Assembly: GCA_010202845.1 (NCBI GenBank)
Contig: CP047921.1
Location: forward strand, 480,001-512,000
Source of the DNA: Candidatus Saccharibacteria bacterium oral taxon 488
GTDB taxonomy: Bacteria > Patescibacteriota > Saccharimonadia > Saccharimonadales > Saccharimonadaceae
Direction: 5' to 3'
DNA length: 32,000 nt
Position numbers and translations under genes: made by a program. Below the pieces are notes generated by a model. It had not been told where the DNA came from and did not search any database. It worked only from the letters and a program-made list of their open reading frames with translations. Of the stretch, positions 7,609 through 18,912 are shown piece after piece. Positions within the stretch are counted from its first letter, which is position 1. Every line of letters begins with the position of its first letter.

Positions 7609-10060
7609 TGATCACTACCTCACGATTTTTTGCAGTCGCTGTCAAGACCGCACCGGGACGGGCCTGACGAGACAATAAGACGTCACTGAGCGGGTCGGCC
7701 AACATTGTCTGAATCGTTTGTCTGAGCACCCGCGCACCACGCTGCTCATCGAAACCGTTATCTATGATACAACGCTTAGCGCTTGGCGTAATCACCAGCG
7801 TCATCTGCTGCGCCTGCACTGCTTCTTTAAGCTCACTCACGAAATTATCGAAAATCTTGCCCACCACCGGCCGAGTCAAGCTCTTGAAATTCACCACCGC
7901 ATCAAATCGCCCGATTAGCTCCGGCCGCAGTAACTCCTCCAGCTCGCGTCGCGCCGCCCGAGCGTTGCGCTCATTCACATCGTCCGCCCGTGAGGTACCG
8001 TCACTGTGCGAGCCAAAGCCCAGCTCACCGTCGCGCACCATCGCCTCGGCGCCAACATTGCTGGTCAAGATCACGATCGTCTGCTGGAAGCTCACCGACC
8101 GACCGCGCGAATCGCTCAGCTTGCCGTCTTCTAAAATCTGCAGTAGCAAGTTCAGTACATCCGGATGCGCCTTTTCAATCTCATCAAACAGCACCACGCT
8201 GTACGGCTGCCGGCGAACCTTATCAGTCAATTTACCGCCCTCATCATAGCCGACATAGCCAGCCGGCGCGCCAATCAACTGACTGGCTGTATGCCGCTCT
8301 GAAAACTCGCTCATGTCGATCTTGATCAAACTATTGTCACCGCCAAACACTTCCCGTGCCAACACGCGAGCTAACTCCGTCTTGCCCACACCAGTCGGCC
8401 CGAGAAAAATGAACGACCCAAGCGGCCCTGACCGCCGACTCAGCCCGGCCCGCGCCCGGCGAATGGTTCGCGCCAATGTCGCCACGGCCTCGTCCTGACC
8501 GAGCACCGACCGGCCTAGCCGCTGCTCCAGTGCCGCCAGATCTTTGCGCTCATTCACTGTCACTTTTTCCGCCGGCACACCAGCCATCGCCGCGACCGCT
8601 CGCCGTACATCATCCTCGGTTAATTCCGGCAATGCTGGATCGTCAGCCGGTAGCTGCTTAGCCTGCTGCTCCAGCTGCTTGATGCGCACCTTGAGTTCAG
8701 CCGCGCGTTGATATTGCTCAGCCTCGACCGCCGCATCGAGCTTGCCCGCTAGTTGTTTAATCCGCCGTGCTAGCTGCTGCTGCTTGGTTGGCTTGGCTGG
8801 CCGTTGCGTATTAACCAGTGCCGCTGCCTCATCGAGTACGTCAATCGCTTTGTCCGGTAAATGACGCTCCGTCACGTAGCGCTGACTGAGGGCTACGCTC
8901 AGCTTGATCATCTCATCAGAAATCCGCAGTCGATGGTGTGTCGCCAGCCGGCCTGCTAGCGCCCGCACCATGGCCACCGCCGCCTGCTCATCCGGCTCCG
9001 CCACCGTCACCGCCTGAAACCGCCGACTGAGGGCCGCGTCTTTTTCGATGTGCTTGCGGTATTCATCAAATGTCGTTGCGCCGATCACCCGTACCTCACC
9101 ACGCGCCAATGCTGGCTTTAGGACATTCGCCGCATCCATCGACCCCTCGGCCGAGCCAGCCCCGACCAATAAATGCAGCTCATCAATAAACAATATAATC
9201 TCCTGATGATTACGCGCTGCCGCCACCACTTTTTGTAAGCGCTCCTCAAACTGACCGCGAAACTTTGTACCAGCGACCATAGCTGTCAGGTCAAGCTGAA
9301 TCAGCCGCTTACCGACCAAAAACTCCGGCACCGTCCCGGCCGCAATACGCTGCGCCAGTCCTTCGACCACTGCGGTTTTACCGACACCCGGCTCGCCGAT
9401 CAGCGCTGGATTATTTTTGCCACGCCGCCCGAGTACCGTGATCAGCCGCTCTGTCTCAGCTTCCCGACCGACCACTGGATCGAGCAGTCCGCTCCGCGCT
9501 CGCTCGGTCATATCAACTCCGTACTGATCAAGGATCTTGAGATCAGCCGACCGACGAGTATGCGGTGCTACAGCTTCCTTCGACTCATCTTGCATGGCTT
9601 CCATCTGCTGCCGATCAAATACGTCCTCCAATGTACCGCGTAGCTCCTCCAGATCCACATTCATATCACTGAGCAACTTCGTCGCCCGAGCCTTGTGCTG
9701 CAGCAGCATGCTATAGACGATATGCTCAGTACCGATGCGCTCCTGTCCAAACTCCGTCGCTAGCTGCCAAGCCGTCCGTATCGTTTCCAGCACCTCGGCG
9801 TTCATGCCTTTGTGAACAACCACCACCACGAACGACTGCGCGGTTAAGCCTAGCGCCAACTCCGCCCGATCCAACGTCACGCCATTCTCCGCCAAAATCT
9901 TCGCACCCAGCGACGAATTTTGCGCCAGCACGCCGAGCAATACATGCTCGGTGCCGACATACGGACTACCACTATTATGCGCCAGCAGCCCGGCACGCTC
10001 TAAGCTGGCCTTGGCGGTATCAGTCAGCCGAGATTCTAACTCAGAAAAATCTTCCGGCAT
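7592..10060 (-). CDS. clpC: ClpC-type AAA+ ATPase (ATP-dependent Clp protease ATP-binding subunit)
   Basis: Two Clp_N repeats, Walker A motifs GEPGVGKT and GPTGVGKT, and a UVR-like coiled segment. I place the start at ATG 10060 (MPEDFSELE...) because AGGAGG lies 5-6 nt upstream. The track start at 10120 would overlap nusA. Confidence 0.9.
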
Positions 10061-11222: not shown

Positions 11223-11281
11223 TATTAGCTCCTTTACGCTATATTATTATACTACGTTTCCTATCAAACGCCCAAGAGACG

Positions 11282-11305
11282 AAAAACTCCGACCTGTTGG
11301 CCGGA
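11282..11305 (-). terminator. intrinsic terminator inside the nusA upstream region
   Basis: Minus-strand RNA UCCGGCC-AACA-GGUCGGA (7 bp including one G-U), followed by GUUUUU. It lies about 60 nt upstream of the nusA ATG. Confidence 0.6.
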
Positions 11306-11420
11306 TGCTTAGTAGTGTAGCATACCCAGGCGGGCAGCGTCAAGTTCAGCCGCCCTATTCACCCATGTCAGCCTGCGAACGGGTATGCGTATCTAACAGA
11401 GGTGGGAGCTCATAGCTATT
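11282..11420 (-). promoter_or_regulatory. structured nusA leader or small RNA of unknown class
   Basis: 8-bp long-range helix between 11320-11327 and 11381-11388. Nested 5-bp and 7-bp helices. A competing 5-bp hairpin 11305-11309/11319-11323. It ends at the terminator above. Confidence 0.4.
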
Positions 11421-11440
11421 CACAATCTTGACAAAAAGCA

Positions 11441-11469
11441 TTGACATTTTCTACTAATAGTGATATATA
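11441..11469 (+). promoter_or_regulatory. strong sigma70-like promoter: TTGACA-17 nt-TATATA with TGn extension
   Basis: Perfect -35 at 11441-11446, with a second TTGACA at 11428-11433. 17-nt spacer, then TGATATATA at 11461-11469. Confidence 0.65.
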
Positions 11470-11590
11470 TCTCAGCCTTTTGACAACTTATCGTAAGTTT
11501 TGTCAACTGCGCTTCGCTGCCGTAGGTCGGATACCTACGGTGGCTTGAGGCGCGGAACGGCCGCACCTCAACAAGTGGAAAGGCGTAAAA

Positions 11591-13024: not shown

Positions 13025-13090
13025 GTAATTATCCCTCCCAAGTAGCATTAGCTTTTCTCTAATTATACTACAAAGTTGTATAATAAAACT

Positions 13091-14614
13091 ATGACGCGCG
13101 AGGAATTATTGGATCTGGCGGCACCGCAGTACGATGAGATACCGGTGCTGGTGTTAGATAGCGCTATTGATTACGCTACCAAAAAGCACGCCGGCCAAAA
13201 GCGCAAAAGCGGCGAACCCTACATCACACACCCACTGGCGGTGGCTGGGATTTTAGTGGAATGGGGTATGGATATCGACACAGTGATCGCTGGTGTGCTG
13301 CATGATACGGTTGAGGATACCGATGCGACGCTGGATGAGCTAGAAAGTTTGTTTGGTCGCGATATCGCCTTTCTGGTTGACGGCGTAACCAAGGTTTCAC
13401 AGGCGCGCGCTGGTATGCGCAGCCTTGATAGTTATTTGCCGCACACCAAGGACAACCTCGCCAAACTGATGATCGCGGTTGGCGAGGACATTCGGGTAAT
13501 TATTATCAAGCTGGCGGATCGGCTGCATAATATGCGCACACTTCAATATATGCCGCGCGACAAGCAGAAGAAAATCGCCCGCGAAACGATTGAAGTGTTT
13601 GCGCCGCTGGCGGATCGGCTGAATATGGGGCGCGTCCGCGTGCAGCTGGAAGAGTTAAGCTTTCGGTTTTTAATGCCTAAGGATTTTCAGCGCACTAAGA
13701 GCCTGATGGATAGCCGCCTGAAAAAAAGCCAGCGCAAACTCGCCAAAGTCCGCCGCGACGTTACGGCGCGCCTCCAGAACGAGAGTCTGCAGTTTGAGAT
13801 GGACGGCCGGGTAAAAAGCGTATATAGCTTATTTAAGAAGCTCGACCGCGTTGGCGATATTGATAAGATCTACGACCTGATCGCCCTGCGCATCATCGTT
13901 GATGATTTAGCGACTGGCTATCTGGTATTGGGCGTGCTGCATGAGATGTACCAGCCGTTTTACGAGCGTATCAAAGACTATGTTGCCAACCCTAAGCCAA
14001 ATGGCTATCAAAGCTTACATACGACGATACAAACGCCGACCGGGCAAATTGTTGAGTTCCAGATCCGCACCCGAGACATGCACGAATACGCCGAGCGCGG
14101 TTTGGCGGCCAGCTTTCATTATAACGAACAAAAGATGTCTGACGCCTACCGACAGGGGCGAATTGCTGCGCTACCGACGGATTTAGCGTGGATTCGTGAT
14201 CTACAGGAAACGGCAGCTCGGGCACGCGAGGGTAAATCATTTGATTCAGAGAAATTCCGTATGAAGTTGTTTGAGGATCGAATTTTCGTCTATTCGCCCA
14301 AAGGCGATATTTATGACTTGCCGCGCGGCGCCTTCCCTCTGGATTACGCCTATCGCATTCATTCCGACATCGCAGCGCACGCCAGCGGATTTAAGGTCAA
14401 TGGCGTCATGAAACCATTTACCTATGAATTACAACACGGCGACGTCGTCGAAGTCTTGACCAGCAAATCCGCCAAACCCAAACCAGCCTGGCGCGACATG
14501 GTCATCACGCCGCATGCCAAAACCAAACTGCGCATGCAACTGTCAAAAAGTGGCGGCGTGCTAGCACATTTGACGGGATTAACTGACGGCGTTTCGTCGT
14601 TGTTTCGACGGTAA
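13091..14614 (+). CDS. rel: short RelA/SpoT-homologue (p)ppGpp synthetase/hydrolase with HD, synthetase and TGS domains and no C-terminal regulatory domains
   Basis: HD motif HDTVEDT, synthetase motifs GYQSLHT and EFQIRT..MH..AE, and a TGS domain (IFVYSPKGDIYDLPRGAFPLDYAY). It ends ~40 aa after TGS. ATG 13091 is preferred over the in-frame TTG at 13076. Confidence 0.9.
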   Translation: MTREELLDLAAPQYDEIPVLVLDSAIDYATKKHAGQKRKSGEPYITHPLAVAGILVEWGMDIDTVIAGVLHDTVEDTDATLDELESLFGRDIAFLVDGVTKVSQARAGMRSLDSYLPHTKDNLAKLMIAVGEDIRVIIIKLADRLHNMRTLQYMPRDKQKKIARETIEVFAPLADRLNMGRVRVQLEELSFRFLMPKDFQRTKSLMDSRLKKSQRKLAKVRRDVTARLQNESLQFEMDGRVKSVYSLFKKLDRVGDIDKIYDLIALRIIVDDLATGYLVLGVLHEMYQPFYERIKDYVANPKPNGYQSLHTTIQTPTGQIVEFQIRTRDMHEYAERGLAASFHYNEQKMSDAYRQGRIAALPTDLAWIRDLQETAARAREGKSFDSEKFRMKLFEDRIFVYSPKGDIYDLPRGAFPLDYAYRIHSDIAAHASGFKVNGVMKPFTYELQHGDVVEVLTSKSAKPKPAWRDMVITPHAKTKLRMQLSKSGGVLAHLTGLTDGVSSLFRR

Positions 14615-14945
14615 GCAAAACACTCATACCTCATCCCAGAGGCTACGGCAAACACGACACCTCCTCTGCCAGAGACTGTGAAACGTTCGCGAGTAGCGGA
14701 CGTTTCAGCCGAACGCTCACGAGAAATCTCCAGTGGAGATTTGAGCGAAGAGTGTGTTATGGCGGCGGACGGTGGAGCGCCGGGCGCGGCTTGGCTTCCA
14801 GCCATCTCCTCCAAGTCGAATGCATCCGGCGGGCGCCGTCCGCAAGAACCGTCGACATATCAGAGAGGCTGGCGGTTGCACTGTGTGGCAAACACGGATC
14901 GAATCTTAGATGAGACGTGATACCACCCTGCTTTACACGATAGTA
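14615..14945. other. GC-rich, hairpin-dense noncoding region of unknown class (candidate structured RNA or decayed coding remnant)
   Basis: Several strong helices, e.g. an 11-bp hairpin at 14681-14707 with one U-G pair that only works on the + strand. Also an 8-bp hairpin AAAUCUCC/GGAGAUUU, and a GGACGG/CCGUCC helix enclosing CUUGG/CCAAG and GGCU/AGCC. There is no SD-led ORF. Confidence 0.4.
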
Positions 14946-15479
14946 TTACGCCTGCTCGTTCCAGCGCTCAATCGCCGCTGCCACAACCTGCTTAGCAGCA
15001 TCAACGCCAGCAAATTCTTTAACAATGGTCGAACCTGGCTTTTTCAGATCCTTATAGTGATTGAAATGGAATTCAATTTGCTTAATCAGCTGCGCCGGCA
15101 AATCCTCCAGCGACTGAATGGCATTGCCATTATGGCGATCGTCGCTTGGCACTGCGATAATCTTATCATCAACCTCATCGTCATCAACAAACTTCATCAC
15201 GCCGAGGATTCGCGCCTCGACCACCAGCCCAGTCGTCAGCGGCGTGTCTGTCACTAACAGCACATCCAACTCATCGCCGTCCTCATCCAATGTCTGCGGG
15301 ATAAAACCATAATTAGTCGGCTTGGCAAAGATTGCTGGGTCAACTCGATCCAGCCGCATGACGCCGACGTTCCGATCCCATTCAATTTTATGATTTGACC
15401 CGGCCGGAATCTCCACGACAACGGTGATTTCGCCGTCCTGATAGCTTCCCGGGGTTAATACTTGGTTAAAATCTGCCAT
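14946..15479 (-). CDS. ppa: family I inorganic pyrophosphatase
   Basis: 177 aa with the DEDGDELDVLLV acidic metal-binding motif and the YGFIPQT motif. Confidence 0.93.
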   Translation of the reverse strand: MADFNQVLTPGSYQDGEITVVVEIPAGSNHKIEWDRNVGVMRLDRVDPAIFAKPTNYGFIPQTLDEDGDELDVLLVTDTPLTTGLVVEARILGVMKFVDDDEVDDKIIAVPSDDRHNGNAIQSLEDLPAQLIKQIEFHFNHYKDLKKPGSTIVKEFAGVDAAKQVVAAAIERWNEQA

Positions 15480-17112: not shown

Positions 17113-18912
17113 TCAATGTTTCCTCTCGGCCGCAATGTCATAACGTGCCAGCTCATCATCAATCCCCACGCCAGCTGTCCGCTGTAGCTTGAGCAAATTA
17201 GCATAAATACCGCCCGATTTTGCCAGCTGTTTCGGCGTACCGATCTCGTCGACCCGGCCATATTTTAGCGTCACAATCCGATCCACCGTGGCGATGGTAC
17301 TCAGCCGGTGGGCGATAATCAGCGTCGTTCGCCCCTTCATCAGCCGCTCCAGCGCCTGCTGCACTAGATGCTCGCTCTTGCTGTCGAGATTGCTCGTTGC
17401 CTCGTCGAGAATGAGAATTGGCGCATCCTTGAGTACCGCCCGCGCGATGGCGATGCGCTGCTTCTGACCGCCGGACAGCTTGAGGCCGCGCTCGCCAATT
17501 TGTGTGTCGTACCCTTTGTCAAGCTCGCTGATGAAGTCATGCGCGTTGGCGGCCTTGGCGGCGGCGATTACCTGCTCATCCGTCGGCTCATCGGCGCCAT
17601 AGGCGATATTTTCACGAATTGTACCGGAAAAGAGCGCTGGCTCCTGAAACACCGTGGCGATATGACGGCGCAAACTCTTTTGCTGCACCGCATCAATTGC
17701 CATATCATCAATCATAATCTCACCACCGTCTGGCTGATACAGGCGCATCAGCAAGTTCGTTAAAGTGGTCTTGCCACCGCCCGACTCACTGACGAGAGCG
17801 ACATGCTCACCGGGACGAAGCGTAAACGAGATGTCGGTCAACACTGGTTTTTGCATGGCAGAGGCGTAGCGAAATGAAACATCGCGAAACTCGACTGCCC
17901 CGCGGCTCACAACTAATTCCGGTGCGTGATGGGCATCTTCAATCGCTGGGCGCAGCGTCATTACGCCAACAAAATCCTTACTCCCAGCCAGAGCTTTCTG
18001 GAAATTATCAACGATGAAACTCATGTTAAACAGCGGCATCCGCAAATTATTAATCAGCGTGATCAATAGCACCATATCGCCGATCGAAAAGCGCCGCTCG
18101 GTCGTCTGCACAAAAATGTACGCAAAAATCATAAAGAAAATGACCGACAACACCACGCCGCGCACGATGTCCATGCTGTGCCAGTAGCGCGATTGCTTGC
18201 GCGTAATGGCAATTGTTTTGCGGTAACGCTTGGCAAAATGACGATATTCAAGCGACTCACGGACATAGCTTTTGACGACTTTGATCTGAGCAATGACTTC
18301 GGCAAACCGGCCGCTGGCCATATCCGTCTCGTGATTTTTACGGTTCTGAAAGGCCTGCCACTTCTTGCTGGTCAGCGCCGTCAGCCACATAAATAGCGGG
18401 TACATAATGACCACCATTACCGCCAACTCCAGGCTGTACACCAGAACGATGCCGATGGTGATACCTGTCGTGAGCAGCATCTGGAAAAAGTTATTGGCAA
18501 ACATGTTCAGGAAATTCGTCGTTTCGGTAATCGCGCGGTTCAGGCGATTGATAATTGTGCCGGTCAGCTCGCCATCAAAATAACTTTGCGGCAAGCCAAG
18601 CAAGTGATGATAGTACCGCGTTGACAGCTGCTGCTTGAGCCGCGTGGCCATCACATCACCCCAGTAACCACCAAGGTTTCGCACCATCGTATTCGTCACG
18701 TCAAGCGCCAGCAGCACCAGCGCCAAGAAAATCGCCTGCTCAATTCCCACCGTGCCGCCCTCAACCACTTCGACCATCAAGCTGGTCGCCCGCGAAATCA
18801 CGAACGGTACTGCGATGCCGGTCAGCGCCACGACAACCGAGCTGACACTAACTCCGACGTAGTATCTGCCCATGCCGCGCGCATATCGGAGCATGTGAAT
18901 TAGCGGCTTCAT
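17113..18912 (-). CDS. ABC exporter, fused permease/ATPase (MsbA/multidrug type)
   Basis: 599 aa. Six-TM N-terminal half, Walker A SESGGGKTT, signature LSGGQKQR, Walker B ILILDEATS. The ATG overlaps the pheT stop (TGATG). Confidence 0.9.
   Translation of the reverse strand: MKPLIHMLRYARGMGRYYVGVSVSSVVVALTGIAVPFVISRATSLMVEVVEGGTVGIEQAIFLALVLLALDVTNTMVRNLGGYWGDVMATRLKQQLSTRYYHHLLGLPQSYFDGELTGTIINRLNRAITETTNFLNMFANNFFQMLLTTGITIGIVLVYSLELAVMVVIMYPLFMWLTALTSKKWQAFQNRKNHETDMASGRFAEVIAQIKVVKSYVRESLEYRHFAKRYRKTIAITRKQSRYWHSMDIVRGVVLSVIFFMIFAYIFVQTTERRFSIGDMVLLITLINNLRMPLFNMSFIVDNFQKALAGSKDFVGVMTLRPAIEDAHHAPELVVSRGAVEFRDVSFRYASAMQKPVLTDISFTLRPGEHVALVSESGGGKTTLTNLLMRLYQPDGGEIMIDDMAIDAVQQKSLRRHIATVFQEPALFSGTIRENIAYGADEPTDEQVIAAAKAANAHDFISELDKGYDTQIGERGLKLSGGQKQRIAIARAVLKDAPILILDEATSNLDSKSEHLVQQALERLMKGRTTLIIAHRLSTIATVDRIVTLKYGRVDEIGTPKQLAKSGGIYANLLKLQRTAGVGIDDELARYDIAAERKH

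Follow-up and report, generated by a model that had tools for sequence, protein, structure and literature searches.

The 331-nt gap between rel and ppa (14615–14945 of the window, by which we mean the whole 32,000-nt stretch of Candidatus Saccharibacteria bacterium oral taxon 488 DNA that was analyzed) is probably made up of small palindromic repeat elements, non-autonomous and stacked in a nested fashion, comparable to the Rickettsia palindromic elements (RPEs) and to bacterial MITEs, rather than a dedicated RNA gene. Among the observations that stand against this explanation, the core of the gap's larger element, A0, evolves more slowly than synonymous sites, and no mobilizing enzyme was found. 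An earlier note on the same DNA had proposed a structured RNA, either stand-alone or derived from a 3′-UTR. Of that proposal the helices are genuine and belong to no known family, but the region is not a stand-alone or locus-specific RNA, since it is made of two dispersed repeats that elsewhere lie inside coding sequences.

The gap is bordered by rel (13076–14614, plus strand; 512 residues), an RSH gene whose product has HD_4, RelA_SpoT and TGS domains only in Pfam, and by the inorganic pyrophosphatase gene ppa (14946–15479, minus strand; PF00719, E = 4.7e-49), which converge on it from both sides, as had been recognized earlier. In a rough ORF-based gene call of the 853-kb single-contig genome, the median gap is 42 nt and the median gap between convergent pairs is 50 nt, which places the rel-ppa gap among the longest convergent gaps and agrees with the initial impression that it is unusually large. 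Its G+C content is 56.8%, compared with 50.7% for the genome, which is about 1 SD over the mean, and 13% of same-sized segments of the genome reach or exceed this value; the 58–72% given previously for 60-nt stretches was too high, as 60-nt bins of the gap measure 50–67%. The TAA stop codon of rel is ancestral and was not made by an insertion, because the stop plus GCAAAA is common to element-free spacers. The similar length (507–520 residues) and identical end of Rel in 18 genus relatives imply that insertion did not truncate the protein. The convergent order of rel and ppa is preserved in all 18 of the genus relatives first sampled. Rel was detected at E ≤ 1e-30 in 18/18 genus relatives and in 0/12 genomes of other families in the order, and the three-domain form (HD, synthetase and TGS, with the C-terminal regulatory domains lacking) may be confined to this lineage.

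The description of the gap as an orphan region does not survive a blastn comparison with its own genome. Element A, matching approximately 14636–14780, has five more copies at 75–89% identity, and element B, matching approximately 14786–14878, has two more. A divergent copy, A′, near 31.7 kb was found via the shared core and also by a covariance model, and the blastn and nhmmer totals for the genome are six A, one A′ and three B copies, with the rel-ppa gap included. The A and A′ copies are ~127–165 nt long and the B copies ~85–100 nt. All eight A, A′ and B copies checked outside the gap lie in ORFs of 369–916 residues, without stops and with the frame kept. For element A the hosts are topA (864 residues), a Dus-like gene, dus (417 residues), an ABC-F gene (664 residues) and leuS (916 residues), each with the copy in the sense orientation and the frame open, and an RNase HII fusion gene, rnhB (369 residues), in which the frame is also open and the copy is antisense to the host gene. 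The two B copies, in a methyltransferase-like gene (484 residues) and in der (522 residues), are both antisense to B0, the copy in the gap, and again the frames are open. The insert peptide predicted for genic A copies (leuS, topA) contains, for example, ...AVKCSRIADASAERSREISSGD... Every copy has arms that form inverted repeats of 17–38 bp, the distal parts of which are copy-specific.

The topA and dus copies of A (genome 278954–279193 and 358874–359113) share a common block of 240 nt, longer than A itself, the extra flanks of which encode SHKTIRDPRQSQIFSETPL and ERGAGD..F.D.VREA; at these two sites A appears to be nested inside another repeat module. About 1 kb away from the dus copy there is a weak partial tmRNA match (genome ~360023–360096; L004 2590–2663, minus strand) with 22 bits and E = 1.3e-5, which is below the gathering score. 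Self-comparison of the genome also reveals further short repeat families, part of them within ORFs too. A separate seven-copy family (~90–190 nt) has a member at 11394–11485 of the window (genome 491394–491485), in a 368-nt divergent gap (11223–11590), and its other copies are at genome positions 290204, 318030, 320765, 367485, 369039 and 457582; none of the copies of this family is in an ORF of 150 residues or more. Shared stretches of 113–467 nt between long ORFs, i.e. window 8040–9427 with genome 788088–789685 (ORFs of 842 and 744 residues) and window 17396–17508 with genome 613845–613957 (599 and 602 residues), suggest gene paralogy rather than mobile repeats.

Alignment of the gap with copies in other genomes shows that elements A and B are piled up between what is left of the arms of an older, decayed A-type copy, all of its parts being given here on the plus strand. 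Outermost are a relic 5′ arm of an older A′-type element (CTCATACCTCATCCCAGAGGCTAC; 14615–14646), which aligns to the 5′ arm and junction of A′ in the same spacer of G079, G039 and other genomes, and a relic 3′ arm of the same type with the ppa-proximal tail (14897–14945), which aligns to the A′ 3′ arm and changes at an approximately neutral rate. In the minimum-free-energy fold 14615–14646 pairs with 14897–14925, and this pairing, together with the alignment of both segments to A′ arms, shows a nested architecture in which the order, from the outside in, is relic A′ arms, direct repeat, and A0 plus B0. The direct repeat consists of two copies of the decamer GGCAAACACG, at 14647–14656 and at 14887–14896, the first of which looks like the footprint of a target-site duplication and extends into the distal 5′ arm of A0. 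The earlier note had picked out this repeat, and its two copies prove to be the sole plus-strand occurrences of the decamer in the 853-kb genome.

Element A0 (14653–14779, ~127 nt) is a palindromic repeat with a three-way junction, matched by the covariance model with 131 bits at 14644–14787. Its fold comprises a closing stem (14653–14674 with 14757–14779), hairpin 1 (14679–14707) and hairpin 2 (14717–14748), and the junction sequence CAGCCGAACGC between the two hairpins (14706–14716) is invariant in every genus copy compared. Element B0 (14793–14877, ~85 nt), delimited by its consensus fold and repeat copies, is a long imperfect hairpin with the core CCAGCC..GTCGAATGCATCCGGC..GGCTGG. No intrinsic terminator was found within the elements, and the single terminator-like site sits in rel (14584–14599). 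A terminator role for the elements was rejected: they have no U tract, and the copies in G498, which belongs to another genus, the one where the most copies per genome were seen, occur in all intergenic arrangements.

The rel-ppa spacer is highly variable among relatives. In a first sample of 18 genus relatives, where it could be read in 17 genomes with this genome (G000) counted, it is 331–339 nt long in this genome and its two nearest relatives alone, ~180 nt with one A′-type element in three genomes, and 33–56 nt in 11/17. At least eight structural forms of the spacer exist in the 30 closest relatives; they include the A+B arrangement of this genome (332–340 nt), A joined to the 3′ half of B with a deletion between GGCGG repeats (265–272 nt), B reversed with the A core missing (237–263 nt), and spacers of 130, 102 and 22 nt. 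Absence of the spacer from relatives, which the earlier note had named as telling against its reading, is thus what is observed in many genomes, with only 22–56 nt between the genes. In G104 an A′ element is inverted in place. The allele of G097 (L215), whose Rel is the most similar to that of this genome (99%), consists of the left flank, one GGCAAACACG and the right flank, with neither element, and this single-decamer allele implies that the direct repeat is the footprint bracketing the 230-nt A+B unit. Because A+B is the commonest state of the clade on a tree of the flanking genes, with the other forms scattered within it, the G097 allele is most simply a precise secondary loss. Judged from these alleles, the rel-ppa gap appears to be an insertion hotspot.

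Several rearranged copies were seen beside these forms. In the spacers L208, L209, L214, L228 and L229, a reversed B is joined at CAGCC to a different hairpin module (..CTGTGACGG...CCGTCAGCC), which suggests that A-type and B-type elements recombined at CAGCC in these spacers. An A′ copy without hairpin 2 (L038; G018:C2, ~265602), in which CAGCCGAACGC is followed directly by CAAAAGAGTACTCC, represents a natural deletion variant of the three-way junction. A or A′ adjoins B at several loci of relatives and in either relative orientation (e.g. G078:C6 36911/37020, G058:C2 47409/47518, G006:C1 354000/353856 and G100:C1 31775/31649); the A-B adjacency in the rel-ppa gap is therefore a recurrent arrangement.

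The orthologous spacers also bear on whether the gap encodes protein, either as an extension of Rel by stop-codon readthrough or with the 80-residue ORF at 14678–14920 as a gene, which we regard as highly improbable. In this genome the rel frame has no stop between 14615 and a TGA at 14918–14920, ~100 codons past the TAA, and it matches the peptide frame in which A is read when it lies inside a gene. In the orthologous spacers, however, the phase of the A0 frame with respect to rel can be 0, 1 or 2, and the frame holds TGA stops in at least three genomes, which arise where a C-G pair of hairpin 1 has become U-A by compensatory change. Moreover, two of the three sense frames are open in A and all three in B in the copy considered here, and Pfam gives no match for the gap ORFs. 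Readthrough of rel and the small ORF are both rejected on this comparison of frames and stops in orthologues, and the agreement of the open rel frame with the A peptide frame in this genome is a coincidence.

Compared with shuffled sequence, the gap folds with z = −2.55 on the plus strand, the minus strand being less clear (z = −1.15). Hairpin 1 has 12 bp (14679–14690 with 14696–14707) and includes the pair U14687-G14699, which is U-G in 22/26 family members. This hairpin with its U-G pair, placed earlier at 14681–14707, and the strong local helices that had been noted in the gap are both confirmed; the helices fit the plus strand better and are kept by compensatory change. Folding an alignment of 26 genus copies of A with RNAalifold yields three components, namely hairpin 1, a hairpin 2 that itself has two parts, and a long closing stem, and the unpaired conserved junction strands are, in order, GCYG, GCCGAACGC and AAGAGUAC. 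In these copies 96% of cells are paired, compared with 35–52% with slid partners, changes on both sides occur in 24/43 pairs, and none of 500 shuffles attains the observed values. The A0 copy of this genome is the most decayed among the orthologues, with 38/43 pairs intact. Across genera (26 sequences, more than 12 genera) 96.8% of cells pair, double changes are seen in 38/41 pairs, and covariation scores 0.82 versus 0.20 for shuffles, in an alignment that was fitted to the covariance model; the unpaired junction nucleotides are the most conserved portion of A across genera. A lack of covariation, which the earlier note had said would count against a conserved structure, is thus not what is seen: covariation is strong both within and beyond the genus. 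Element B shows little of it because B is too conserved, with double changes in 5/28 pairs, all of them in the outer stem.

On the sense strand of the element G-T pairs number 63 versus 12 A-C mismatches, or 41 versus 12 when the fixed U-G pair is subtracted, and this excess hints at a strand-specific single-stranded form. A search of the gap against Rfam returned nothing at gathering scores, nor at E ≤ 10, in line with the earlier report that RNase P, tmRNA and SRP were not recognizable and that the class could not be assigned. Well-kept A, A′ and B copies and 16 copies from other genera likewise gave no meaningful match in Rfam 15, whose families also cover raiA, the ornate RNAs and self-cleaving ribozymes.

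The constraint on the untranslated copy was assessed in 12 genomes with a full A+B spacer, with the third codon positions of rel and ppa as reference (226/374 variable columns). The A0 core has 20/82 variable columns (odds ratio 0.21, p = 4e-9 versus synonymous sites) and so varies ~2.5-fold less often than neighboring synonymous sites; B0 has 38/98 (p = 1.5e-4 versus synonymous sites), and the spacer tail, with 34/62, behaves like synonymous sites. Nucleotide diversity is 0.067 in the A0 core, compared with 0.27 and 0.19 at the third codon positions of rel and ppa, respectively. A locus-specific mark, GAGACTGTG instead of GAGGCTGTG, is kept in 12/12 orthologues, which argues against homogenization (gene conversion) by the genic copies. 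The sequence CAGCCGAACGC is read in different frames in A and in A′, where hairpin 1 is shorter by 5 nt, and its invariance despite the different frames indicates that conservation acts on the nucleic acid and not on the peptide. A fixed selfish insert is expected to drift neutrally. The constraint on the A0 core is not explained by a purely selfish fixed insert, and for this reason we continue to give some weight to a function.

It is possible, if unlikely, that the A-type element is a functional nucleic-acid module, RNA or single-stranded DNA, kept for the host or for its own propagation. It could take the form of a processing or self-cleaving RNA, a recognition site for an RNase or other protein, or a regulatory 3′-UTR element, and the rel-ppa copy might be a working one. 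The far lower variability of the intergenic A0 core than of synonymous sites, which the rest of the spacer does not share, favors such a module, as do the invariance of CAGCCGAACGC among genus copies with differing frames in A and A′, the covariation of most pairs across genera, the conserved U-G pair together with the G-T excess, and the persistence of GAGACTGTG, which speaks against gene conversion. However, strand-biased deamination could yield the G-T excess and hairpin-templated repair can mimic compensatory change. In addition, Rfam offers no matching ribozyme or other RNA family, one of the genic copies runs antisense to its host, and the copy at rel-ppa is dispensable, as close relatives are without it. 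In G498, the occurrence of 20 intergenic copies in all neighbor arrangements and both orientations leaves no consistent cis-regulatory position. A function of this kind would overlap with the preferred explanation by nested repeats, in that an element could be both mobile and functional.

An exact-core pattern (GGCYGTG..CAGCCGAACGC) provided a first estimate of the distribution of A, with matches in 57/101 genus genomes, in 0/11 genomes of other genera in the family and, in the rest of the order, a single chance-like match in ~290 genomes. A longer core pattern was applied to 185,579 species genomes; among the matches listed, 76/80 are Candidatus Saccharibacteria, one of these 76 records being a Candidatus Nanosynbacter sp., and the other 4/80 are chance matches in high-GC genomes, without the hairpins. 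Restriction of A to the genus was nevertheless rejected, since the exact pattern is too strict and a covariance model built on the genus alignment of A found the fold beyond the genus. Within the family this model detects the A fold in 25/151 genomes, which represent 20 of the 95 genera sampled, and beyond the family it detects the fold in three others out of ~70 in the order. The model finds no A fold in ~144 genomes from other orders of the phylum, a result that doubles as a specificity control. The highest copy numbers are those of G498 (21), G473 (9), and G453 and G505 (8 each). Element B is present in 29/101 genus genomes.

Outside the genus the copies are mostly intergenic and mostly contain stops in every frame. 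In G498 all 20 copies examined are intergenic, occurring in both orientations in 7 divergent, 10 tandem and 3 convergent gaps, and in other genera 3/20 copies lie in frame inside genes (MnmA-like, Dus and Fpg-like). The distal arms of the G498 copies differ almost wholly from one copy to another, and nearly all readable copies are self-complementary over 26–38 bp.

The leuS site offers further clues to mobility, as across species it holds A in the sense orientation, A in the antisense orientation with different distal arms, or no element. Compared with G092 and G100, which are without the insert, the leuS gene of G004 is filled (+117 nt), and the insert-free allele keeps exactly one distal arm (GCGGATACATCACCATCC). 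The alleles suggest that the distal arms are locus-specific and derived from the flanking host sequence, either through an inverted duplication made at insertion or because the palindrome grew outward. An origin of the arms from pre-existing host hairpins is unsupported at leuS, where the insert-free allele has just one arm. A direct-repeat footprint is seen at the rel-ppa locus only, with G097 carrying the single-copy allele; no consistent duplication was found at 18 G498 copies with readable ends, nor at leuS.

A search for mobilizing enzymes in this genome found no RVT_1 (reverse transcriptase), Y1_Tnp, rve or DDE_Tnp_1 domain. The high-copy genomes contain no DDE_3 and no TnpB-type zinc-ribbon domain (PF07282), and DDE_Tnp_1 occurs in 2/5 of them, no element being found in the flanks of those genes; no parent IS with matching ends was found. 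A single Y1-like ORF of 207 residues, IS200/RAYT-like and with the HUH motif HFHLL, is present in G498 (G498:C1:1187963–1188586; L317 1312–1935) and in G421 (G421:C4 ~37633), two genomes of one genus, which is the one where the most element copies per genome were seen. A search with cmsearch, filters off, found no element flanking this gene in either genome, and Y1_Tnp is absent from three other multi-copy carrier genomes (present in 2/5).

We consider it doubtful that the elements are REPIN-like repeats which a REP-associated tyrosine (Y1/HUH) transposase moved as folded single-stranded DNA, and whose copies were left stranded here when the enzyme was lost. REPINs are built of two conserved REP units, and their single-copy RAYT (Y1) gene is flanked by the repeats. 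The elements described here resemble them as long, long-persisting hairpin repeats with tens of copies, mostly intergenic in the other genera examined, and some carriers have a lone Y1-like gene, namely G498, with its 21 copies, and G421; the strand asymmetry in pairing would also suit a single-stranded DNA substrate. In contrast to REPINs, they are not made of two conserved REP units, their arms are copy-specific with no conserved REP sequence, and within this genus they sit inside genes. The Y1 gene is missing from most carriers tested, this genome included, and the element is not found at its flanks. The copies follow no leading- or lagging-strand rule, the count of 5 lagging versus 2 leading being uninformative.

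The closest functional parallel is with the RPEs (Ogata et al., 2000), which are summarized in PMC10969869 as palindromes of ~100–150 bp, in several families, that lie in frame in unrelated genes and have no known transposase, with other copies in spacers. The region could be said to work like RPEs, a likening by habit and not by membership, and homology is not expected. In both cases palindromic repeats of ~100–150 bp and of several families are dispersed in a small genome; many copies interrupt unrelated housekeeping genes without breaking the reading frame, and others occupy spacers, leuS providing orthologues with and without the insert here. No transposase is known for RPEs, and none was found in this genome. 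Unlike RPEs, the elements belong to an unrelated host phylum, they have a conserved asymmetric three-way-junction core with locus-specific arms, the same fold is mostly intergenic in other genera, and an untranslated copy is measurably constrained.

A similar comparison can be made with bacterial MITEs, such as Correia/NEMIS, ERIC, RUP and BOX (reviewed in PMC10969869). The elements share with them a small size, non-autonomy, hairpin formation, dispersal, an occasional intragenic location and terminal inverted repeats, here arms of 17–38 bp, and the rel-ppa locus adds the direct-repeat footprint with an element-free allele, nested insertions and deletion derivatives. They differ in that the arms are almost fully different between copies of one genome, each copy being almost perfectly self-complementary over 26–38 bp, and in that neither a parent IS with matching ends nor a consistent target duplication at other copies was found. 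In a classical MITE the termini are the conserved part. In the present elements the unpaired junction nucleotides are the most conserved, which is the reverse of the classical pattern. The literature searched held no paper tying Saccharibacteria to palindromic in-frame elements, MITEs or RNA motifs.

For the nested-repeat explanation, we propose that an older A′-type element would once have occupied a short 3′ spacer and would later have lost its core. A unit of A, with its three-way junction, and B, a hairpin, would now lie between the old arms, bracketed by the 10-nt direct repeat, and events at the same spot in relatives would subsequently have included precise loss, partial deletion, inversion and replacement. 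The elements presumably spread, or formerly spread, as DNA through some trans-acting activity. Hairpin-templated repair or selection acting on a single-stranded fold, or the two together, may keep the arms complementary. Transcription of the elements at this locus would be purely passive, as part of the 3′ end of rel, and any influence on RNA stability would be incidental.

What looked like an orphan RNA locus is well resolved by the analysis as a set of nested palindromic elements, for which close relatives provide an element-free allele, inversions and deletions. It also places the in-frame "selfish DNA" of oral Saccharibacteria within a much wider, mostly intergenic family with one three-way-junction fold. 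For annotation the result is a caution, as such elements lead to spurious ORFs, to seeming "readthrough" extensions and to ncRNA candidates that are false. The conservation of the fold exceeds what selfish DNA by itself would account for. A tentative extension, to which we give a modest chance, is that A constitutes an order-wide functional module of Saccharibacteria, a ~140-nt three-way junction in which the junction and the strand-specific fold are selected even when untranslated. If so, it could be a self-cleaving or processing RNA, or a structure recognized by some protein, and it would be carried within the mRNAs of essential genes in Nanosynbacter-like genomes. The strong covariation and the slow evolution of an untranslated copy thus raise a testable question, i.e. 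whether these elements are purely parasitic or have a function at the RNA or DNA level in ultra-small genomes.
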